A DNA stretch of 14,974 bases from a virus: the UHGV virus genome UHGV-1728491. One strand, given 5' to 3'. Shown here in pieces: positions 4,256 to 14,974 of the stretch. Within the stretch, counting starts at the first letter, position 1. The number at the start of each line of letters is the position of its first letter. Both the position numbers and the translations under genes were made by a program. The notes under the pieces are model-generated. The model was given only the letters and a program-made list of their open reading frames with translations. It was not told the origin of the DNA and did not search any database.

Positions 4256-6058
4256 TTAACCTCTCAAGAAACACGCCACAGCGACATCAAACAGGCTGGA
4301 ATCCTGTATTGCCTGCTCACTTTCCCTGTTCGCTTCATCCAGTACTTCACGCGCACTGCGCGATTGTGGATTACCATCATCATCCAGCACGGTGATTATC
4401 ATGTCAGGTGATTCAAGCAGCGAGTCTTCAGCTATGCGCAGATCAATATCTCCTGCCTGATCTGACATCATTTTTTGTTCTGCCTGTTGCAATATTTTAT
4501 CAGGCTCAAAAGGAGCTACTTCGTCTGGCGTCCTGACCTCTGCTGTTTTATAGAATGAAACAGCCTGAGCATTAAGTTCACTTTCTGCCTGCTGTCTCCG
4601 AGCCAGTTCTGCTCGAGCTTCAAAAAACTGACCGCCAGGCTCGTGCGGTGCCAACGCGTTACGGGAAAATTCCAGGCGTTCTTGTGCCTGCCGGATTCGT
4701 TGATCAATATCGCGAAGTCTGGCCTGTTTATCTGATCGAGCACGAGACAAAGCTTTACCGCTACCGGTTGGCTCTTCTGCAAGAATTTGTGCACGCTGTT
4801 CAGTGAGATTTTCAATAATTCGTTGGCTATTAGCGATTTCAGACTGGTAAACCTGTCTATCTCCACGCGGCAAAAGCTGCGCGGCCTGTTCTTCAAGCAA
4901 CCGATTTTCTATAGCGCGCGCCGTTACTCCATCATCTACAGATGACAGAGCCTCATTAACTTCCTGAGACAGCAGACTCTTGCGCCCAGGAATTTCACTG
5001 AAAGATGCAGACTCAACAATGCTCGCAACGTCTACAGGTCTCCCCTGGCTAACATCAGACATGGCTTTTCGCAGAGCCTGAATGTGCGAATTACGCGAAA
5101 GCACGTTGATCGGAACGCCGGGAGCAATATCAATTTCAGCATGATGAGCGGCATTCGCCGCCAGTGCAGCATCGATATCAACTGGTGAAAAATTTGGTGC
5201 GCTTGTAGGCTCGCCGCGAGAGTTAATAAATCTGCCGACACCACCAAACGCCACCCCAAGAACAGCATCAATAGCAATTGCCTGTCGATCCAACACATCA
5301 TACTGGTTAGCCATTTCGCTATAGCCACCATCACGAAGCGTTTTTGCAGTAAGCCCACGCTGTGCCATACCGAACGCAATATTTGTACCTGCGGCATAGG
5401 CAATATCTGGCGTTGCACGTACTGCTGTTGCTGCGGCGCGTCGCACTGAACTTTCCCCCGTCCGCGCAAGCTGAGCCGCCACACCTTCCGCCAGCGCACC
5501 GCCAGCACGTAACCCGAGGCTCATTGGGATCAGTGTTCCGGCACCAGCAGTAATACCATGCACTAATCCCGCTTCCTGCGCCGTCCTGAAATCAACACCC
5601 TGTGCTGTCAGCCGTTCAAACTCAGAAAAACCCTGTAGAGAAGTTACTGCCGCAGCACCTCCGACCGGACCACCGAGCGTTGTACCGACAACAGCCTGCC
5701 CGCCCATATCGAACAACCCATAAAGGACCTGCCCGGCGGTTCCGGTTGTCGCGGCATCAGGCGTCAGCCGCTTAACCTGCTGCTCTGCTAGTTTTCTCTG
5801 CTCAGCAATGTATGAAACTGAAGTGTCATTGAGCGAGGTGTTTTCGTTAACAAACTGAGCAATCGGGGATACGATTTTATCCATCCCTGCCCATAGCAAC
5901 TGATCTGGCTTTGCCACCAGCCCGGAGTACAAACCAGACAATGCCGCTCCTACAGCATTGTCGAAAAAACCAACATCGCTGTTAAAGCCAGCTGGATTTG
6001 ATGCTGCTTCGTCAAGCTGCTGATTCTGGTTTACTGGATTAAGGCCAAAGTAACTCAT
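4256..6058 (-). CDS. Internal virion / ejection protein (600 aa): Gly/Ala-rich hydrophobic N-terminal half, coiled-coil and acidic C-terminal half
   Basis: Long ORF in the ejection-protein position. ATG (rc of 6056-6058) has GGAG 9 nt upstream and overlaps the 3' end of the preceding gene by 20 nt. Composition is typical of membrane-inserting ejection proteins. No family-level match recognised. Confidence 0.65.
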   Translation of the reverse strand: MSYFGLNPVNQNQQLDEAASNPAGFNSDVGFFDNAVGAALSGLYSGLVAKPDQLLWAGMDKIVSPIAQFVNENTSLNDTSVSYIAEQRKLAEQQVKRLTPDAATTGTAGQVLYGLFDMGGQAVVGTTLGGPVGGAAAVTSLQGFSEFERLTAQGVDFRTAQEAGLVHGITAGAGTLIPMSLGLRAGGALAEGVAAQLARTGESSVRRAAATAVRATPDIAYAAGTNIAFGMAQRGLTAKTLRDGGYSEMANQYDVLDRQAIAIDAVLGVAFGGVGRFINSRGEPTSAPNFSPVDIDAALAANAAHHAEIDIAPGVPINVLSRNSHIQALRKAMSDVSQGRPVDVASIVESASFSEIPGRKSLLSQEVNEALSSVDDGVTARAIENRLLEEQAAQLLPRGDRQVYQSEIANSQRIIENLTEQRAQILAEEPTGSGKALSRARSDKQARLRDIDQRIRQAQERLEFSRNALAPHEPGGQFFEARAELARRQQAESELNAQAVSFYKTAEVRTPDEVAPFEPDKILQQAEQKMMSDQAGDIDLRIAEDSLLESPDMIITVLDDDGNPQSRSAREVLDEANRESEQAIQDSSLFDVAVACFLRG

Positions 6059-8567
6059 TCGGAATATCTCCGGAGAATCTCTGACGCTTCTGTGTCAGAT
6101 TAAGAACAACGGGAGAACCATCATCTTTCAGCAGATAACCAGTACCAAGTTTCACCAGGTACTGACTATCGCCGTAACTTTGCAAACCATACTGACCAGG
6201 CGGTGTTTTTATCCCGGAGCCGACAACTTGTTCATTCCAAGCCTGATTAACCTGCTTATCGAATTGCTCCGCAGACATTCCCCACGGCAAAAGGACATTC
6301 CCCATTCCGTTATAGTCATGCACGCCACCTGTAGCTACGTTAACAGCCTGTTTCCAGACATCATTGTCAATTTCGCCTGATACCACGCCTTTTTTCGCCA
6401 TCACACCAGCGTAATAATCCTTTGCGATCTCGTATGCCATTGATGCCCCCTGAGCGTCACCAGCAAATGCATCCTTCACCATGTCAGAAAACTCAAGGCG
6501 AAGATCAGCATCTTTAGGCATCGGAATACCTTTCGCATCATCAGTACCTTTACGAGCCGCCGCGCCAGCAAGAATTGTCTGCGCAGCGGTTTCAGGAGAC
6601 ACGGAAACATCCGGATTAAACCAGTTTTTTTCTGCCAAAATACCACCTGGCTTATCCATCAGTATCCCGGCAACGGCAGCAGATGGAGCGTTGGCACTGA
6701 TCTGCTGTAGTGCTGACATATACACCTGCCCACCACCAGTGCTCTGCCTGATGGTATCGAGATATGCTGCCTGTTGGGAAACTGGAGCATCACGAAAGAA
6801 AACACCGATCTGATTGGCCTCATCTTTGGAAAAGAACGTCAGTGGAGTGCCATATGACTTAGCAAGGTCACTGACCTGAGCGGCACGCAAGGCAACGCTC
6901 TGTCCAAAGTTATCCTTATTGCTCATGTCGATAGGCTTTGCCTGTCCGGCGGCAAGAGAGAACTGCACAGGATCCGATTGCCGCTGCTTTATCACCTGAT
7001 TTGCAGCCGAAACAACGTTGTCATAAAGAGCTGCGCGTGCCGCATACCCCTCCCCTGTCTCACCAGTATCCGGGCGTAATTGCTCAACATATGCTGTAAT
7101 GCTGCTTGTCGGCATGTTGCGGAAAGAGCCTATATACTGTCCGGCGATTTGCGTATTTCTGAACTCGGTATATCGCAGGTTTCCTTCTCTGACTCCATAA
7201 GCTGCAATAAAATCAGCCTCACCAGGTGGGTTAGGAAATTCAACGCCACGCATATACGCAGATGTCGCATCGCGAACTTGGCTGTCAATCATCGTTTTAT
7301 ATTCAGCCTGCTGCTGCCGACGCAGTTGATCCGCCTGTCGCATAAAACTTGCCTGCGCCTCAGGAGATGCCGCATCGAATGCTGCATTACCGGTATAGCG
7401 TTTGGTGTTGGTTGGAATTGTTGATAAACCAAGTGCTGCACTGACACCAGCAGTTAACTGCTGATCACTGTATGGCTGGCTACCGTTCTCATGATGGATA
7501 ATGGCTGCACAAAGCGCCTTCAGGGTATCAGGATTAGATGCATCGAGAGGCTCATCAGCAGAAACGCCAAGTTGTTCGCACACTGCTTTGATATACGACA
7601 TAGTGTCATTTTTATCAGTAGGCGGTGCCCAGCGATTAATTATCTCGCTGACGGTATCGATACCCTGCCGCTGATACGACATCAGGTTACGCCCTAATGC
7701 ACGAATCCCGTGCTCAGGTGTTTCGAATTTAGCAAATCGACCATCATCACCGGTCTGGCCTACCCACGGATTAGTTTTGCTGTATTCGAGATTTCCTGGG
7801 TTATTGTTGCGTATGCCACGGGCACGCTCGGAAGAGTCATTATCTGCTACAGCACGGCGAGCTCCAGCAGCAGTATCACTTAACTCGCCATTACTTTGGA
7901 TGAATGCGGTCGCATTGTTTGCCGACCACTGGGACAATGCGGCATCAGCAACCTTCTCTTTAAACTCGATTTTCTTGGCCTGTATTTGCTCGTCGCTCCA
8001 GCCATGCGCAACGCCGTAATCCTCAATTTGCTGGAAAGTTTGCTTATTAGCCAATACGTATGCGGCGTTGTCGCCATACAATGCTGCGGCATTTTTACCA
8101 TTGTTCAGCAGCGTCGCCTGAAACTGGCCTTCTTCGTAGGAATTTATTTGCCCTATCTCGTGCCGCCCGGCCTGCGTAGTGAACTGAATGCGCTGCTGCT
8201 GCGCCTGCTGCATGAAAGCATTACGAGCCTGTTCATCCGGCAGCGACATAGCCAGTTGCTCGACCTGGGCATCAAACTGCTGCGTATACTCCTGACCTTT
8301 TCCAATAGCATTTTTCCCTTTCAGGTTAAGCAATCCTGTTTCAGGATTATTCAGCAGATCACTGCTTATCTGACTGAGGTTAAGAGATGCCTCCTGAGCC
8401 AGAGCGATATTGGCACGCTGTTTTGCCTGCCCCAAAACATCAATTGCCTCTGTCCCTGCCCGAACAAAAGCATCACTAATACCTAGCTGAGAAAACGTCT
8501 GCAAGCCTGCTGACTGAACTCCACGACTCTCAACCTGACGTCCGGATACTGTTGGTACGACTGGCAT
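6039..8567 (-). CDS. Large internal virion / ejection protein (842 aa from the preferred start), gp15/gp16-class; contains a conserved hydrophilic NNNPGN block of possible enzymatic function
   Basis: The track gives 867 aa from 8642, but the ATG at rc 8565-8567 has a strong SD GGAGGA (rc of 8573-8578) and forms a TAATG stop/start overlap with the gp14-like gene, so I place the start at 8567. Follows the gp14-like gene as in T7-type cassettes. Conserved-looking block RGIRNNNPGNLEYSKTNPWVG…IINRWAPPTDKNDT at nt ~7443-7820. Confidence 0.65.
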   Translation of the reverse strand: MPVVPTVSGRQVESRGVQSAGLQTFSQLGISDAFVRAGTEAIDVLGQAKQRANIALAQEASLNLSQISSDLLNNPETGLLNLKGKNAIGKGQEYTQQFDAQVEQLAMSLPDEQARNAFMQQAQQQRIQFTTQAGRHEIGQINSYEEGQFQATLLNNGKNAAALYGDNAAYVLANKQTFQQIEDYGVAHGWSDEQIQAKKIEFKEKVADAALSQWSANNATAFIQSNGELSDTAAGARRAVADNDSSERARGIRNNNPGNLEYSKTNPWVGQTGDDGRFAKFETPEHGIRALGRNLMSYQRQGIDTVSEIINRWAPPTDKNDTMSYIKAVCEQLGVSADEPLDASNPDTLKALCAAIIHHENGSQPYSDQQLTAGVSAALGLSTIPTNTKRYTGNAAFDAASPEAQASFMRQADQLRRQQQAEYKTMIDSQVRDATSAYMRGVEFPNPPGEADFIAAYGVREGNLRYTEFRNTQIAGQYIGSFRNMPTSSITAYVEQLRPDTGETGEGYAARAALYDNVVSAANQVIKQRQSDPVQFSLAAGQAKPIDMSNKDNFGQSVALRAAQVSDLAKSYGTPLTFFSKDEANQIGVFFRDAPVSQQAAYLDTIRQSTGGGQVYMSALQQISANAPSAAVAGILMDKPGGILAEKNWFNPDVSVSPETAAQTILAGAAARKGTDDAKGIPMPKDADLRLEFSDMVKDAFAGDAQGASMAYEIAKDYYAGVMAKKGVVSGEIDNDVWKQAVNVATGGVHDYNGMGNVLLPWGMSAEQFDKQVNQAWNEQVVGSGIKTPPGQYGLQSYGDSQYLVKLGTGYLLKDDGSPVVLNLTQKRQRFSGDIPNELLWP

Positions 8568-9112
8568 TATAATCCTCCGGGTAATCTGGTTCCTGCTGCC
8601 GCCCCGATTGGCGCAGGGGTGCTTTGAGTAAACGGACTCCACGTCCCACCAAACATCTGGTACGCACCGTATGCCTTCAGAGGCGCAGTGAGCAATGTTG
8701 TTGCTGCTCCCACATTCCCCTGTTTACGGGCTGAACTGGCTTCTGCTTTATAGTTGGCAGCCTGAACCTGATAACCGTAAGCCTCGCGTTGCGCGTTATT
8801 CACCGTCGTTAGCGAATCAAGAGCGCCAAACTGAGCAGTGTCACCAAATATATCCAGCGCGTTACCTGTAGATAAATCAGCGCCGGTCGCCCCCATTGTC
8901 GCCGCCTGTGTACCAAGCCGCTGTCGGGTCTCTCTGCGCCGTTGCTCAGCTTCAGCGTTACCTCTGTTTATTGCATCATTTGCCTGAGCTGTGGCTATAT
9001 CTGCGTTCGCTTCTGCAACCTTCGAGGCATACTTTCCCTGTTGGTACTGGGTGTATGCCTGAATGCCACTCATGGCGAGCATTGCGCCACCAGCAATAAC
9101 CGGATCGCACAT
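8567..9112 (-). CDS. Internal virion protein B-like (T7 gp14-like), 181 aa
   Basis: ATG overlaps the upstream stop (TAATG at 9110-9114). N-terminus MCDPVIAGGAMLAMSGIQAY has a hydrophobic segment; Ala/Gln-rich middle; C-terminus …APIGAAAGTRLPGGL. Size, position after the gp13-like gene and N/C-terminal pattern match what I recall of T7 gp14 (196 aa). Memory-based. Confidence 0.6.
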   Translation of the reverse strand: MCDPVIAGGAMLAMSGIQAYTQYQQGKYASKVAEANADIATAQANDAINRGNAEAEQRRRETRQRLGTQAATMGATGADLSTGNALDIFGDTAQFGALDSLTTVNNAQREAYGYQVQAANYKAEASSARKQGNVGAATTLLTAPLKAYGAYQMFGGTWSPFTQSTPAPIGAAAGTRLPGGL

Positions 9113-9576
9113 TATTTTCTCTCCATGTGAAATCTGTGGAAATTAAGACCAAGAGCACCATAAGGCGCGGCTTCTTCAAGCCTGAATCCAAGCCAGTGCA
9201 GCCATGCTTTGGCAACATGGTTTCGCTCGTCGACGTAGTTTTCCAGGCGCGGATAAACTGCCAGCATCTGCTGCAATACAGGGCGGCAGTGGCGCAGAAA
9301 TGTCTTCTGATATTTTTCAATACGGCTGGTTCCGACCAGCCAGGGCGTACCATTGCCACCGATCATTGACGCCGGAGATACACCAAACATGGTTACCAGT
9401 TCTCCGTTCGCGAACCCTGACCAAGCCATAGTCGCAGTGCGAAGACCAACACGCAGCGCATCTTCGGTAGTCATCAGCGATACCGCATACAGTTCGTCAA
9501 TATCAGCCTGACGAACATCCGGCAAAATCATCTGAAGATGCTCTTCGGTAGCGGGAATAATTTGAACATCAATCAT
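9112..9576 (-). CDS. Internal virion protein A-like (T7 gp13-like position), 154 aa
   Basis: ATG overlaps the stop of the gp12-like gene (ATGA at 9574-9578). Size and position between gp12-like and gp14-like genes match the gp13 slot. Call is positional only. Confidence 0.45.
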   Translation of the reverse strand: MIDVQIIPATEEHLQMILPDVRQADIDELYAVSLMTTEDALRVGLRTATMAWSGFANGELVTMFGVSPASMIGGNGTPWLVGTSRIEKYQKTFLRHCRPVLQQMLAVYPRLENYVDERNHVAKAWLHWLGFRLEEAAPYGALGLNFHRFHMERK

Positions 9577-12038
9577 CAGAATCCCCCAACAGTAAGGCGA
9601 GGAATAACGGCAAGAACAGACAGCGGCAACGGGTCAAGCTGAAGGATTCTTACACGTCCGTTTTTGCCCCAGTTACTGTCCAGTTTCACTTCTACTTTTC
9701 CGGTAGCGTCATCAACAGGATCATCGTAGAACTCGAATTCACGCTGTGGATATTCGTACCATTTACCGCCGGGCGTAGTCGCCCAGATGCCGCGGCTGGC
9801 ATTCACAACCAGAGTAACGGATGGGATCACCTGTTTTTTGTCCAGCAGCGTTTCCTGTCCGTTAATGTTGATATCCAGTGTTTCGAATTCAGCAGTTATT
9901 GGCAGGCCGATGTGCACTACAGCCCCCGGTGATTCCAGCGTGACGGCACCTCCGGAAACTACTTTCTGTGGTTCCACGTTCGCATCAGAGAGGATGTTTA
10001 CGGTCTGACCTTCAAGATGAGACAAGCCGCCAAATGCCCGGCGCGCCATCTGCCAGTTCGTGGTGGCCACATTCCTGAGGGATGGCGGGACGTTCCTGTT
10101 AGCACGAACCACTACAGCGGTGTTGCTGGTTACAGAAATAATGTCGCAACGTAATTCTTTTGCGCCAGTATCAGGATCAGTTCCGGTATAAGGGAACTGT
10201 AGTTGCGCACCGACATCACTACTGGTGAAGTACGCACCACCAGAAATACTGATTGTATATTCCGCGCGGTAATCCCATTCGCCAGAACCACCAGTGATGG
10301 TCATCGTTCTGTCAGACGTATTTCTTCCATCATAGCTAAGGCCAGAATCAACAAAGAAAGCATCTTCATCGCTGGTAAATAAACGGCTGGACAGTCGCTC
10401 GATGTATCTCACTTTTTGCCCGTTAACGGTTCGGTTAACGACGAAATACACCGCATCTTCATTGCCTTCGCTGATACTGCATGTGCTTTCATATTTTCCG
10501 GTACTGGATTGTGGTGCCCATGCAAAAACCTGCTGATCACGCAAATAGGTCATCACCAGTAATTTACCGTCATCACGAATGCAGAAGGCGCTGGAGTAAG
10601 GGACAATCGAGAAGCACCAGTCAACAATGCTGTGCTTCTGAAAAAGATGATTGGCAAGGATAGTCAGGTCGTTCCCCTGATAGCCGTCAACATCGAATGA
10701 ATAGGCCAGATCACGGACAACACTGCCTTTCTCCTGGACGAACAGAGCAATATTCGCCACGGCAATTGGTGGGACGTTGCTTGAGCCATTTGATCCCTGA
10801 GAGCTGAATGCAAATGATGATGGGGTTAACACTTTGTTCTGGTCGCCGGTGATGACGTACTCACCTCCGGAAGTCAGTGCCACCAGCGAACCGACATCAA
10901 TCAGGTGGCGGATCTCATTAACCTGACGCCCGGCATAGGTGTAGATAATTCTGTCGTCATCCTGCGTAGGATTGCTTTTGCCAAAATCCTTATAATCCCC
11001 AGTACGGCTGGCCCAGATAGTCTGAGGGAACGCAGTCGATGCGGCGAAGTAAAGACGTTGTTGATAATAAACAACAGTGCCAGGATAACCATTAACACTG
11101 TTCCAGGCATATTTAGCCCATTTATAGCTGGCATTATCCTCGCCAACTATCTGCGAAGGGATATAGGAAATCACCTCGGCAGTTGCAGTAGTTCCATTTG
11201 CAGCAGTGATACGGGCAATGCCAAAACCACTGTGCAGATATTCCCACTCAATGCCAGTGTCATCATCACCGGATCCGCCCCAGCCATCCCATGATGTGCC
11301 TTCTGTATGCGAAGGGCGCAAAGTGCCTGTTTTGCCTGCTGTAACGGCGCGATAGTAGTTACTGTCTGCACGGCGAATATCGCCAATCGACGTACTCTTA
11401 CTGGTTTCCCATACCGGTACTGAATCCACTGCTGGCTGTTCCAGATAGAACAATTTTCCTACCTGCTCCGCGCCAAAAATAGAGGCGCTTGCCGTTAACG
11501 TAATTGTCCCGGTGCTGGCGCTGGCATAAACCGTCACTGACTCGTCAATATTGATATCTTCAAATGGCCCGTTCTTCGTTACTACATCAACCAGTTGCCA
11601 GTTGTCATGCGCATAGCGGCGCAACTCTTTCGGCGGGTATGCCGGATGAACCAGCGTAAGCACGTCTGCGCTTTGCGTGAATTTAATTCGGAACAGATCG
11701 GCTTCAGTATATGGCGTGGCAATTTCATAAATAACATTGCTGCTGTTCAGCACCAACGCACCATCTTTGATAACGCGCATGTACTGGTGTCCGAACTCCA
11801 GAGCATAGGTCTGAACCGTCGAGAACTGGAACGGGATCAGGCGGCATTTCCGATTTGGGTATTTGGCGGCACCGACAAAACGCGTACCAGGTCGATTCTC
11901 AACGCCGCCATACTGCCGCACGATAAAGTTATCGCACTTGCGCAATGCCACCTGGTACTTCGCCATGTCGATACGACCGTACAACGACGGTCCAATCTCA
12001 CCACCGGCAAAGCTGGGCTGTATCCAACTGATAGCCAT
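9576..12038 (-). CDS. Tail tubular protein B / nozzle protein (T7 gp12-like), 820 aa
   Basis: Long ORF. ATG (rc of 12036-12038) overlaps the upstream stop (TGATG), with GAGG 8 nt upstream. Several segments (N-terminal MAISWIQPSFAGGEIGPS…; central …WASRTGDYKDFGKSNPTQDDDRIIYTYAG…SGGEYVITGDQNKVLTPSSFAFS…) parallel the T7 gp12 sequence as I recall it. Follows a ~200-aa gp11-like gene. Confidence 0.7.
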   Translation of the reverse strand: MAISWIQPSFAGGEIGPSLYGRIDMAKYQVALRKCDNFIVRQYGGVENRPGTRFVGAAKYPNRKCRLIPFQFSTVQTYALEFGHQYMRVIKDGALVLNSSNVIYEIATPYTEADLFRIKFTQSADVLTLVHPAYPPKELRRYAHDNWQLVDVVTKNGPFEDINIDESVTVYASASTGTITLTASASIFGAEQVGKLFYLEQPAVDSVPVWETSKSTSIGDIRRADSNYYRAVTAGKTGTLRPSHTEGTSWDGWGGSGDDDTGIEWEYLHSGFGIARITAANGTTATAEVISYIPSQIVGEDNASYKWAKYAWNSVNGYPGTVVYYQQRLYFAASTAFPQTIWASRTGDYKDFGKSNPTQDDDRIIYTYAGRQVNEIRHLIDVGSLVALTSGGEYVITGDQNKVLTPSSFAFSSQGSNGSSNVPPIAVANIALFVQEKGSVVRDLAYSFDVDGYQGNDLTILANHLFQKHSIVDWCFSIVPYSSAFCIRDDGKLLVMTYLRDQQVFAWAPQSSTGKYESTCSISEGNEDAVYFVVNRTVNGQKVRYIERLSSRLFTSDEDAFFVDSGLSYDGRNTSDRTMTITGGSGEWDYRAEYTISISGGAYFTSSDVGAQLQFPYTGTDPDTGAKELRCDIISVTSNTAVVVRANRNVPPSLRNVATTNWQMARRAFGGLSHLEGQTVNILSDANVEPQKVVSGGAVTLESPGAVVHIGLPITAEFETLDININGQETLLDKKQVIPSVTLVVNASRGIWATTPGGKWYEYPQREFEFYDDPVDDATGKVEVKLDSNWGKNGRVRILQLDPLPLSVLAVIPRLTVGGF

Positions 12039-12643
12039 CAGGACAACCTCGCAATGGTAAACTCGTCAACCGGTGGCTGTGGTTCCTGTGATTCATTCTG
12101 GCTATGCGAGCCAGCACTAAGAATCACGCGATTGTACATATTGAGGGCAAACGTACCGAGGTCTGCATTCCCAGTCAGCGCCATGTTAATAGCTGCCGCA
12201 AGACGCCAGGCCAACGCCTCCATAAAAATGGCATCAAACATGTTCACATCTGTAACGCGAGAGACATACTTGAGCCATGCCTGAGGCTGGTCTGTGTAGA
12301 TCAACTTTCCTGTTCCGTTGGTGTCTGCACCAACTTCGTACTGAACGCGCATTGCTGCTGTTGGATTGCGTACACCAGGAAGCATAATTTCAGTAATGCG
12401 CAGACAATCGGACGGGTACTGGTATGCGTATTCCCAGTCTGGCGGCGGATTGTTCGTATCTGCAAGCGTCACGCGTTTGGTAGCAAAGTTCCAGTCAAAA
12501 TCAGAAAGCACAGCATCACGGCAGGCCTCAAAGTGCAGCGAACATTCCCCCGCTTCCTTGCTGGCTTCCGTCAGGCTGTTAATGCTGCGGCTGTTGCCAA
12601 TATTGGACAGCGCACGATTACAGATCTCTACTACAGAGGCCAT
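12038..12643 (-). CDS. Tail tubular protein A / adaptor (T7 gp11-like), 201 aa from the preferred ATG
   Basis: The track starts at a GTG (12646); the adjacent ATG (rc of 12641-12643) has SD GGAGGTG 5 nt upstream and overlaps the upstream TGA stop (TGATG). About 200 aa immediately upstream of the gp12-like gene, as in T7 (gp11 196 aa). N-terminal pattern (…VVEICNRALSNIGNSRSINSLTE…) loosely matches recalled gp11. Confidence 0.6.
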   Translation of the reverse strand: MASVVEICNRALSNIGNSRSINSLTEASKEAGECSLHFEACRDAVLSDFDWNFATKRVTLADTNNPPPDWEYAYQYPSDCLRITEIMLPGVRNPTAAMRVQYEVGADTNGTGKLIYTDQPQAWLKYVSRVTDVNMFDAIFMEALAWRLAAAINMALTGNADLGTFALNMYNRVILSAGSHSQNESQEPQPPVDEFTIARLS

Positions 12644-12966
12644 CACTCACCTCCGTTACCGTACAGAGTTTCAGCCGCTGATTTTTCTACATCCCCGGAA
12701 ACAGGAGCGATCGCCATATCAGTGATCTGCAGATCGGCGCTGCGATTAACGCCATCGTCAGTTTCTCTGGCAGACAGGCCTCGAATAACAGCCTTTGCAG
12801 TTATCATCACTTCTGTTCCGACGCCCTGAGGTTGCGCCTTCAACTTATTCAATGTGTCGTTATTAAGAGTGATGCACAGCCCCCACGGGTATTCATCGCG
12901 AGTTCTGGTTTCTCCGCTCTCATCCTGGTAGCTGTCAGTGCCGGTTTTGAGGTTTACGAGTTCCAT
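12643..12966 (-). CDS. Hypothetical virion-associated protein (107 aa from the preferred ATG); C-terminus carries the SAAETLYG motif shared with the scaffold-like ORF
   Basis: ATG at rc 12964-12966 has SD GCAGGAG 5 nt upstream. The GTG start used by the track (12972) has no usable spacing. First gene of the translationally coupled chain leading into the gp11-like gene. Confidence 0.55.
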   Translation of the reverse strand: MELVNLKTGTDSYQDESGETRTRDEYPWGLCITLNNDTLNKLKAQPQGVGTEVMITAKAVIRGLSARETDDGVNRSADLQITDMAIAPVSGDVEKSAAETLYGNGGE

Positions 12967-12978
12967 ATACACTCCTGC

Positions 12979-13000
12979 AATAAAGGGGCCGAAGCCCCTT
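12979..13000 (-). terminator. Intra-operon stem-loop with UUCG tetraloop followed by a U-rich tract; candidate partial terminator or attenuator
   Basis: Minus-strand RNA: AAGGGGC-UUCG-GCCCCUU (complement of 13000-12983), then UAUU, then the SD of the next gene. Lies in the 50-nt gap between the 111-aa and 107-aa genes. Confidence 0.45.
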
Positions 13001-13016: not shown

Positions 13017-13352
13017 TTACACGCCCAGTTCTTTACGCTTATCTGCGATCTTCTCGCGGAGCGTTTCGGCTTTGGCGTTATGGTGTGGCTTCTCGTTAAA
13101 GAGCAATTCGTACTCTTCACGGAGCTTATCCAGTTCACCATCATCTGACACATCGTTGATGATTTTGGTGCTGGTTGCTGCCATTGACACCTTTCCTGCA
13201 ACTTTTGCTTTTGCCTGTCTGGCTGCATCGTTAACAGGTTCCAGTGCGCTACCAGGCTCACCTTCGTATTCGATTTCTGCCCCCTCCGGCCACAGAGTGT
13301 TATGGATATGAGAGAGGCGCAGAACGCGGTATCTTGGTTTCTCACCTGACAT
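13017..13352 (-). CDS. Hypothetical small acidic virion/assembly protein (111 aa from ATG; 114 aa if the GTG at 13361 is used)
   Basis: ORF between the 145-aa gene and the hairpin. ATG at rc 13350-13352 is preceded by AAGGTG. The alternative GTG start (13359-13361) lies 1 nt after the upstream stop. C-terminal half is charged and probably helical (…DDGELDKLREEYELLFNEKPHHNAKAETLREKIADKRKELGV). Confidence 0.5.
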   Translation of the reverse strand: MSGEKPRYRVLRLSHIHNTLWPEGAEIEYEGEPGSALEPVNDAARQAKAKVAGKVSMAATSTKIINDVSDDGELDKLREEYELLFNEKPHHNAKAETLREKIADKRKELGV

Positions 13353-13362
13353 CGATATCACC

Positions 13363-13800
13363 TTAACCAGTTACTTTTGAGCGGATCGGATACGGCGTAT
13401 TGGCATCAACATCAAGACTGATACCAGCAGTGAATTCGCCAGCCGTTAGTGGGCCAGTTGCGACGGAGTAGTTAACACGCAGATATCGCTGAACACCGGC
13501 AGGCACCTTTGCAGAAACAACTCGTTTACCTGCTGTCAGGGCGGTCTTTGCCAGTGCGCCACTATCATAAATAGTGGTCCATGAGCTGTTATTCTCACTC
13601 GTCTGCAACTGGATGTTTACAGTTGCATCACCGCTTGCCGCGGCGGCTGTGTTAACCAGCGCCCAAAACTCAAGCGGGTAACCCACGCCGATATCACGAC
13701 GTTTTCCGTCAATTGGACCGAGATCGATTACGTCAGTAGAAGCCGCGGTATTCGTAACCGCCTGAGCTTCGGAGAACATCAACAGTTTGTCGGTGATCAT
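13363..13800 (-). CDS. Hypothetical beta-rich protein (145 aa), candidate capsid decoration or minor head protein
   Basis: ATG at rc 13798-13800 with SD GGAG 9 nt upstream. Thr/Ser/Ala/Val/Gly-rich composition with no hydrophobic helices (Ig-like feel). Immediately downstream of the putative capsid gene. Function inferred from position only. Confidence 0.45.
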   Translation of the reverse strand: MITDKLLMFSEAQAVTNTAASTDVIDLGPIDGKRRDIGVGYPLEFWALVNTAAAASGDATVNIQLQTSENNSSWTTIYDSGALAKTALTAGKRVVSAKVPAGVQRYLRVNYSVATGPLTAGEFTAGISLDVDANTPYPIRSKVTG

Positions 13801-13851: not shown

Positions 13852-14838
13852 TTACACCACGCGGGCTTCTGTTTCCAGAAGCGCATCAGTCTCACGGATT
13901 GGTACACCACGGAATGAAGTCCACCACTCGCCTTCTGTCTCTTTTACGCTGATCGCCAGAGATGTTTTCTCCAGAGATTGCAGATCAAGAGCCTGGCCTA
14001 CAGTGCGGTTCATGTAGAACACCGGGCGGCCCATGCCACGGTTTGGAATGCGATGCAGTGCTTTAACCATCAACTTCGCAATATTTGCTGCAGAGGAAGG
14101 TTCTGAAAGATTGCTGACATCGATGTTTGCAATGCGAACAACATAACGCCAGTCACGCAGAGCAAGCCCGTTGTCCCATTTGTAATGGGTACGGTAGCCT
14201 TCGTACTTGCCGCCATTCGCATCTTCCAGTGTCACCTGGCCTTTATCTTCCATCTGGATGCCAGCCTTCTGCCCTTTCGGGAAGATGCCATGCACGGTGT
14301 TTTCGCCCCACACCACTAACCAGATTGAGGTGTTATCTGTACCCGTGCCACCAGCATCAATGATGTTCTGAGCATTACCCGCAGACAGGCTGGAATAGCG
14401 GGAGGACAGTCCCATAAACTGCTGAGGGTTAACGCTGGAATCACCATAAAACAGTGTCTGCGCCATCTGCTGATTCATCGCTTCAATAAATGCGCGGTCT
14501 TCAGACAGGCGGAACTCGGCGGTATTGCCGTTCAGATCAGCCAGTGACTTATCGACTTCAGCATAGGTTTCCAGCATGCCAACGGAATCGGTTACCTGCA
14601 CTGTGGTTGATTTGCTTGGCTGTACGCCATAGTTCAGCAAACGCCAGGTAGCTGAAGGTAAACCAGAACGAATGGTGGTTCGGTGTCCGGTAGGAAGGTT
14701 CCCTTCGACAAAAGGCATATCCTGAAGGATCGGGTTAGTTTGACCGAGAAGCTCGATAATCTTATCGACTTTCCCGTTTGGATCGACGCGCTTACCCCAG
14801 TCAGCCAGCGTTAGCGCAGTTAAGCCTTTAACAGCCAT
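13852..14838 (-). CDS. Putative major capsid protein (328 aa from the second ATG; 330 aa if the ATG at 14844 is used)
   Basis: Complete ORF of typical HK97-fold capsid size, directly downstream of a scaffold-like ORF and upstream of the tail genes. SD GAGAGG sits 8 nt before the ATG at rc 14836-14838 but only 2 nt before the ATG at rc 14842-14844, so the second ATG is preferred. No diagnostic motif recognised; the call is from size and synteny. Confidence 0.55.
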   Translation of the reverse strand: MAVKGLTALTLADWGKRVDPNGKVDKIIELLGQTNPILQDMPFVEGNLPTGHRTTIRSGLPSATWRLLNYGVQPSKSTTVQVTDSVGMLETYAEVDKSLADLNGNTAEFRLSEDRAFIEAMNQQMAQTLFYGDSSVNPQQFMGLSSRYSSLSAGNAQNIIDAGGTGTDNTSIWLVVWGENTVHGIFPKGQKAGIQMEDKGQVTLEDANGGKYEGYRTHYKWDNGLALRDWRYVVRIANIDVSNLSEPSSAANIAKLMVKALHRIPNRGMGRPVFYMNRTVGQALDLQSLEKTSLAISVKETEGEWWTSFRGVPIRETDALLETEARVV

Positions 14839-14852
14839 TGTCATTTCCTCTC

Positions 14853-14974
14853 TTATTTGCCATAGAGCACTTCGGCCGCACTACGCTGGCCTTCATTACC
14901 ACCGGTGACCATGCCATCTTCAGACATCGCCTTTCCGATTTTCACGAACGTTTTGACCAGATCAGGGTGATTAC
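14853..14974 (-). CDS. 3' end (last 40 codons) of the gene upstream of the capsid gene; scaffold-like by position
   Basis: Only one minus-strand frame is open across 14856-14974 (the other two hit stops at once). It ends …KIGKAMSEDGMVTGGNEGQRSAAEVLYGK with TAA at 14853-14855, 8 nt before the capsid SD. The scaffold assignment is positional (portal-scaffold-capsid order in T7-like modules). Confidence 0.45.
   Translation of the reverse strand, partial: NHPDLVKTFVKIGKAMSEDGMVTGGNEGQRSAAEVLYGK

Follow-up and report, generated by a model that had tools for sequence, protein, structure and literature searches.

Results

A shared C-terminal tail in the window

In a 14,974-nucleotide stretch of the virus genome UHGV-1728491, referred to here as the window and analysed at its full length, two otherwise different proteins end in nearly the same peptide: a 107-aa protein homologous to gp10 of phage epsilon15 (the gp10-like protein), and the product of an upstream open reading frame (ORF) of the gp6 type, which appears to be a scaffolding protein. 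We consider that this tail is probably the peptide by which the scaffold would dock on the coat protein during procapsid assembly, and that the gp10-like protein has copied it and would use the same site. Read on its minus strand, the window is 98–99% identical to the structural module of the Escherichia phages TL-2011b and phiV10, and by this sequence match it comes from a podophage of the phiV10/TL-2011b type, epsilon15-like and of the genus Uetakevirus.

The gp10-like ORF (window 12643–12972, minus strand) has a translation that ends in GDVEKSAAETLYGNGGE at the stop codon, the C-terminal stretch being also written EKSAAETLYGNGGE, and the upstream ORF (14856–14972, minus strand) ends in NEGQRSAAEVLYGK, that is, QRSAAEVLYGK; as a stand-alone tag, the tail peptide is written SAAETLYGNGGE. 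Translation and a regular-expression scan of the minus strand placed SAAETLYG at 12681→12658 and SAAEVLYG at 14882→14859, bearing out the motif SAAE[V/T]LYG that a sequence-only reading of the window had reported on both proteins. When the window and the complete phiV10 genome (39 kb) were read in all six frames, the more permissive pattern [ST]AA[EDQ].[LMF][YF]G matched at these two sites only, and it gave no occurrence in 200 shuffles of the window. The same reading had remarked on synonymous codon differences, and these are extensive: 14 of the 24 bases of the eight motif codons, counted by hand, are common to both genes, as are 17 of 33 in 11-codon windows over the tails, and only two of the seven identical motif residues have the same codon, serine being encoded by AGT in one of the genes and by TCA in the second. 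Outside the tail the two proteins are not alike, and they are not paralogues along their length, as might have been thought; BLASTP of one against the other found as sole similarity a 10-residue tail segment with 7/10 residues identical (E = 0.019, for a single comparison), and only the last 13 columns aligned in a profile–profile comparison (hhalign).

Conservation and co-variation of the tail

For comparison we used 89 loci, nine from phage records and 80 from IMG/VR with the coat protein as anchor, in which the scaffold and gp10-like genes were located by hidden Markov models built without the last 18 residues. Every scaffold homologue recovered has an A-x-x-[LMF]-[YF] tail a few residues from the stop, with the core A-x-x-[L/M/F]-[Y/F]-[G/P/A/D]. 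Among 1.84 billion cluster representatives (clusters at 50% identity), a profile search found 3,564 members of the gp10-like family. The top matches included 143 full-length proteins, of which 135 have the hydrophobic–aromatic dipeptide in their last 16 residues, so that the core recurs in homologues of both proteins; from 0 to 13 residues follow the motif. The motif aromatic of the gp10-like protein, Tyr102, is invariant in family alignments, but is Phe in two loci, L061 and L066, where both proteins have made the change (KSAADVLFG in the scaffold, K[ST][AT]ADVLFDGGE in the gp10-like protein).

The tail co-varies between scaffold and gp10-like protein in at least 14 lineages. The pairs, scaffold first, are QRSAAEVLYGK and KSAAETLYGNGGE in the phiV10 type, DLISAFYPKK and ELKDAFYPDG in epsilon15, DARRLYAASNMNP and AAQRLYGASSMSA in BPP-1, ARAAKLYDKS and QRAAKFYANT in BcepC6B, WNRMYPDM and YARMYADD in CP2, and QRSAADILYG and QRSAADTLYG in L051; L085 has DARSLYPNSDLK and DARSLYPNSTLI, with the core DARSLYPNS identical in both, and two additional contigs have AEKLYPTMNK and AGKLFPSMKS (L092) and VDAFYPTKS and TSAFYPKGE (L097). 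A permutation test over the 14 lineages, with the aromatic residue excluded, gave a summed BLOSUM62 score of 268 for tails paired within their own genomes, whereas shuffled pairs scored 116 ± 30; the observed similarity was not reached in any of the 100,000 shuffles, and the outcome was the same with an 11-lineage subset. Identical tail residues use the same codon in scaffold and gp10-like genes at only 41 of 112 positions across lineages, which points to selection on the tail peptide rather than to gene conversion, and the earlier view that the similarity is conserved at the protein level and is not a recent DNA repeat is thus upheld by both analyses. The tails also match in genomes of the BPP-1, BcepC6B and CP2 types, although there the gp10-like gene lies upstream, by the portal gene.

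Dispensability of the gp10-like gene and a third carrier

The gp10-like gene is cleanly missing from the sewage isolate Escherichia phage EC.W1-9 (L090, 2144–2201), in which the adaptor gene comes directly after the gp9-like gene, from five phiV10-type uncultivated virus genomes (L015, L018, L025, L028 and L042, near 8826–8885), and from four members of the 'VLFG' lineage (L055, L056, L058 and L060) whose siblings carry it. It is the whole gene, of about 325 bp, that is present or absent among otherwise near-identical phages, and this in two separate lineages; the hairpin upstream and the adaptor start are kept. The gene was found in 43 of the 59 loci that span portal to nozzle (gp12); it is dispensable and accessory. 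In all of the genomes that lack it the scaffold tail is intact. Since it persists in these genomes, the scaffold tail is not there to bind gp10, and it is the small protein that copies the tail of the scaffold.

Most genomes have two carriers of the tail, and one, L064, has three. Its additional carrier (L064:4177–4416, plus strand) is an unrelated, basic 79-aa protein of phrog_16160 with a weak match to DUF6582; its gene lies between those of the portal and the scaffold, and it ends in KSAAETIYPKQGKK, like the scaffold and gp10-like tails of the same locus. This one locus hints that the tail peptide is portable.

Association of tail type with the coat-gene cassette

Natural mosaics allowed us to see which gene the tail type follows. 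Epsilon15 and PAT1, both Salmonella phages, are 99% identical in the portal, 92–97% in the scaffold body, 99% in the adaptor gp11 and 98% in the nozzle gp12, but they are only 48% identical in the last 25 residues of the scaffold, 44% in the coat, 40% in the gp8 cement, 41% in gp9 and 46% in gp10. In the DNA, identity falls away some 55 nt ahead of the scaffold stop, just before the scaffold tail, and recovers just past the gp10 motif, within the last ~15 nt of gp10, which hold the adaptor ribosome-binding site and belong to the gp11-side block. Scaffold tail, coat, cement, gp9 and gp10 have been exchanged as one cassette (locus ~2180–4320 in L002, epsilon15, and L004, PAT1), with flanking genes 93–99% identical. 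Between the phiV10 type and loci L039–L049 the coat is 83–88% identical and the tail 9/10 identical, yet the scaffold body is 52–63% and the portal ~68% identical. In L097, whose scaffold body has only 48% identity to its epsilon15 counterpart, the coat is of the epsilon15 type (74%) and the tails are AFYP. Regression of tail identity over 1,218 locus pairs gave standardized coefficients of 0.59 for the coat, 0.05 for the scaffold body, 0.12 for the portal and 0.18 for the adaptor; the pairs are not phylogenetically independent, and no P value is given. Nor does the tail follow the host, SAAEVLYGK being common to phages of E. coli, Enterobacter, Klebsiella and Salmonella, while the two Salmonella phages epsilon15 and PAT1 differ. 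Tail type thus follows the coat-gene cassette, and not the scaffold body, the portal, the adaptor or the host.

The probable gp6-type scaffolding protein

The ORF that had been described as scaffold-like runs off the window end, only the 3′ end of the gene being present (14856–14974, minus strand, with the tail motif at 14859–14882); it has 231 residues at full length in TL-2011b, and with this correction we too read it as a scaffold. Nearly all records, L001:8854–9549 included, name the gp6-type protein 'protease', 'peptidase' or 'putative endoprotease', a legacy label that apparently goes back to the phrase 'similar to S. typhimurium putative endoprotease STM2005'. We found no protease domain in it, with no Pfam family, no relevant NCBIfam family and no PDB sequence match apart from weak ones to helical proteins, and we rejected its assignment as a prohead protease (S78/U35, S49/ClpP-like, S80 and similar types) for want of a recognizable peptidase domain. 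The protein has the features of a scaffold, being acidic (pI 4.6), devoid of a catalytic domain and encoded between the portal and gp5 genes and the coat gene, and on these sequence features it is more likely an internal scaffolding protein. The proposal that the shared tail is a protease recognition site is not supported, because no protease domain was found in the upstream protein and because the coat and cement proteins of BPP-1 are reported to be uncleaved (PMC3863775).

The gp10-like protein

The gp10-like gene (12643–12966, minus strand, with its tail motif at 12658–12681) encodes an acidic protein (pI 4.4) that matches Pfam PF21628 over residues 5–101 with 173.6 bits (cut-off 27; E = 1e-51), phrog_825 with E = 5e-58 and epsilon15 gp10 (PDB 3J40 chain N) with E = 2e-21. 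The legacy names of this family, 'capsid staple protein' at NCBI and 'Major coat protein-like' for PF21628, are still in the databases and are based on the 3J40 model. According to PMC9207676 that model is a mis-assignment: the 111-aa gp10 was wrongly modelled into the staple density of epsilon15, which a 130-aa protein fits instead. This 130-aa staple protein belongs to the Bbp16 family, with its homologue in the window at 13363–13800. By its predicted fold the gp10-like protein lacks the jellyroll expected of a staple or cement protein that makes up the outer-surface dimer density, and it is not the constant capsid component, at 1:1 with the coat, that such a protein would be, since its gene is missing from some phages. 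An AlphaFold2 model (pLDDT 78) shows a long β-hairpin with short helices and a tail of low confidence; no structural neighbour turned up for it in the PDB, and its only matches in BFVD are uncharacterized family members. A remark in PMC12391199 that gp10 lies at the inner capsid surface cites a ~7 Å map and the old model, and we have not used it as evidence.

The position of the gene in the head module varies: BPP-1 (L006), BcepC6B (L007) and Jess A (L009) have it just after the portal gene, CP2 (L008) just before it, and genomes of the epsilon15 type between gp9 and the adaptor. In BcepC6B the annotated start (giving 192 aa) is apparently too far upstream. Two hybrid ORFs, P0021 and P0117, in contigs of 2.3 and 1.1 kb from ENA metagenomes, join a ClpP protease and a gp10-like protein reciprocally at the common peptide QITDMAI; we judged them to be assembly chimeras, probably caused by a short shared DNA word, and not real fusions.

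Gene order in the window

Gene order was assigned from the TL-2011b and epsilon15 annotations, and all of the genes named here lie on the minus strand. The scaffold gene is followed by that of the major capsid (coat) protein (13852–14844), a GP7-family protein with the HK97 fold (Pfam PF20911, E = 2e-149) and the putative partner of the tail, then by the Bbp16-family cement gene (13363–13800; Pfam PF21190, E = 5e-47), homologous to epsilon15 gp8 (PMC9207676; PMC3863775), and by a gp9-like gene (13017–13352; phrog_590) that belongs to the swapped coat cassette. Directly upstream of the gp10-like gene, RNA folding gave a GC-rich hairpin, AAGGGGC-UUCG-GCCCCUU, with a U-rich run (12979–13000). Epsilon15 has a rho-independent terminator annotated at the equivalent site, and the hairpin is kept in genomes without the gp10-like gene; a terminator consensus scan did not list it, and we regard it as a probable intrinsic terminator dividing the coat and cement genes from the gp10 and tail genes. 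The gp10-like gene ends in four codons for NGGE and a stop that overlaps the start of the next gene (12641–12657), and this segment includes GGAGGTGA, the ribosome-binding site of the adaptor, so that it is probably the next gene, and not the motif, that constrains the NGGE residues. Hairpin and overlap together suggest that the gp10-like gene is expressed with the low-copy tail genes and not with those of coat and cement. The adaptor (12038–12643; phrog_394) is gp11-like and of the tail tubular protein A type by the epsilon15 annotation, and nozzle and internal virion protein genes lie downstream of it. Among the latter, a 154-aa protein (9112–9576) has an epsilon15 homologue annotated as GNAT-acetyltransferase-like, and an 867-aa protein (6039–8642) carries the TL-2011b annotation 'endolysin'.

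Discussion

Proposed role of the tail

The sequence-only reading had suggested a common docking partner for the two tails, for example the coat or the portal, and the co-variation supports a common partner, while the mosaics favour the coat and disfavour the portal, which is 95–99% identical across the tail swap. From the exchange of the tails with the coat cassette, we infer that the partner is encoded there, with the coat protein as the obvious candidate, and it is favoured because scaffold C-termini bind the coat in other phages. The scaffold would dock on the inner face of the coat protein through its C-terminal peptide during procapsid assembly, and the gp10-like protein, acidic like the scaffold and carrying the same peptide, would use the same coat site; it might then be taken into the procapsid, as accessory or as cargo, or compete with the scaffold there and modulate it as an auxiliary scaffold. 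Targeting of the 107-aa protein into the procapsid, as previously suggested from its tail, is therefore plausible, and its binding to the coat, its location inside the procapsid and its role there are proposed from the sequence comparisons. More tentatively, and as a possibility on the unlikely side, the tail may serve a very large group of HK97-fold podophages (the epsilon15, phiV10, BPP-1, BcepC6B and CP2 types) as a portable tag for capsid targeting, the gp10-like family (more than 3,500 clusters at 50% identity) being phage-encoded accessory cargo or co-scaffolds loaded by scaffold mimicry, with a tag that other small proteins could acquire.

Several observations weigh against the docking of both proteins on the coat. 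The BPP-1 capsid at 3.5 Å consists of coat and Bbp16-type cement only (PMC3863775), and the mature capsid of PhiXacm4-11 (3.16 Å, in a preprint) was likewise modelled with coat and cement only. The acidic charge of the gp10-like protein suggests that it would be expelled by the DNA, which fits poorly with the putative detection of gp10 by proteomics in epsilon15 virions (PMC9207676). As to the choice of partner, the cassette also contains gp8 and gp9, which are alternative candidates, and the locus pairs in the regression are, as stated, not independent. Furthermore, the 3′ end of the scaffold gene adjoins the coat gene, and the gp10-like gene of the epsilon15 type lies at the other end of the cassette, a layout from which part of the co-segregation of tail and coat could be physical linkage. 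Finally, a few lineages pair poorly in the tail comparison, among them Jess A, which ranks 12 of 14.

Within-genome co-variation would also be expected if the tails bound each other, or if the globular part of the gp10-like protein bound the scaffold tail, making the small protein a chaperone, cap or release factor of the scaffold, and the long β-hairpin predicted for it suggests an oligomerizing or peptide-binding surface. We nevertheless consider this unlikely: the scaffold tail is fully conserved in phages without gp10 (EC.W1-9, L015, L018, L025, L028, L042 and L055–L060), so that its main partner is not gp10, the co-variation runs towards identity and not complementarity, and L064 has a third, unrelated carrier. 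That the tail instead brings both proteins to the unique vertex by binding the portal or adaptor is improbable. The scaffolds of other phages do recruit portals as well, and the gp10-like gene lies beside the portal gene in BPP-1, BcepC6B, Jess A and CP2 or overlaps the adaptor start in the epsilon15 type; however, between epsilon15 and PAT1-type phages portals are 95–99% and adaptors 99% identical with unrelated tails, and between the phiV10 type and L039–L049 portals are only ~68% identical with the same tail. The 3J40 model, the legacy names and the putative proteomic detection in virions (PMC9207676) would agree with an external staple or decoration whose tail is a coat-binding hook used on the outside, but this is very improbable given that the staple density fits the 130-aa Bbp16-family protein and not the 111-aa gp10, that the BPP-1 and PhiXacm4-11 capsids contain coat and Bbp16-type cement only, despite both genomes encoding a gp10-like protein (Bbp20, and gp18, a homologue of CP2 ORF12), that the predicted fold is not a jellyroll, that a viable phage lacks the gene, and that the gene lies downstream of the terminator-like hairpin with the tail genes.

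Scarcely any weight can be given to the tail as a degron or cleavage site through which a protease or chaperone, of host or phage origin, would remove both proteins at maturation. An Ala-rich C-terminal peptide ending in a hydrophobic–aromatic pair, together with the annotation 'protease' of the upstream gene, might call this to mind, but no protease domain was found in that 'protease', the BPP-1 coat and cement are reported to be uncleaved (PMC3863775), the tail type follows the coat type and not the host, and the 0 to 13 residues after the motif make recognition of a free C-terminus unlikely. The pairwise BLASTP E-value is, admittedly, only 0.019, and both motifs adjoin the start region of the following gene, as might be expected of chance, of recent duplication or gene conversion, or of a by-product of translation signals at gene ends. 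The probability of such an origin is negligible in the light of the permutation, codon and motif-scan analyses, the conservation of the motif across thousands of family clusters, and the ribosome-binding sites, which lie downstream of the motif and are not the same in the two genes.

Comparison with known systems

The nearest parallel to docking of both proteins on the coat is in phage 80alpha and its satellite SaPI1, where the scaffold and CpmB have a common C-terminal helix-and-hook (RIIK) that binds the same coat site, and where the tails are exchangeable (PMC5644958). There, as here, the same C-terminal peptide is found on a scaffold and on an otherwise unrelated, small and dispensable protein. 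The 80alpha and CpmB peptides bind an HK97-fold coat inside the procapsid, whereas binding here is proposed from the comparisons above; moreover, our motif is of the A-x-x-L-Y-G type with no homology to RIIK, which makes this an analogue and not a member by descent, and, unlike the satellite-encoded CpmB, the mimic lies in the phage's own late operon and has no known effect on capsid size. Looser analogies are offered by encapsulins, HK97 and T4. Encapsulin cargo-loading peptides are short C-terminal peptides found on different proteins, which they direct to the inner face of an HK97-fold shell, and the three carriers of the tail in L064 recall this; but their consensus differs, encapsulins have neither scaffold nor DNA packaging, and encapsidation of the present carriers is putative. 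The short C-terminal capsid-targeting part of the HK97 prohead protease and the short capsid-targeting sequence of T4 internal proteins load non-shell proteins into procapsids, the HK97 signal binding the delta domain of the coat and the T4 signal being N-terminal and cleaved by the prohead protease. Unlike those phages, the present group has no detectable protease, and the coat is reported to be uncleaved. The epsilon15 gp10 'staple' of 3J40 chain N is, by contrast, a true homologue of the 107-aa protein, with a mis-assigned role (PMC9207676). Our literature search found no paper on the shared tail, on the phage protein Bbp20, on 'capsid staple protein' or on the epsilon15 scaffold tail.

Implications

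The database names of both proteins, 'capsid staple' or 'major coat protein-like' for the gp10-like protein and 'protease' for the scaffold, are outdated. About eight C-terminal residues of the scaffold are a likely coat-specificity element, in a phage group without a procapsid structure, and natural swap pairs are available in epsilon15 and PAT1 and in phiV10 and EC.W1-9. If the tail is indeed a portable tag for encapsidation, it could serve for loading proteins into such capsids, BPP-1 being already of interest as a display platform (PMC3863775), and the capsids of tailed phages would have a natural and evolvable means of cargo loading, much as encapsulins do. For the gp10-like family itself (PF21628; 3,564 cluster representatives), which lost its only assigned function through the reassignment of the staple, the tail provides a testable role.

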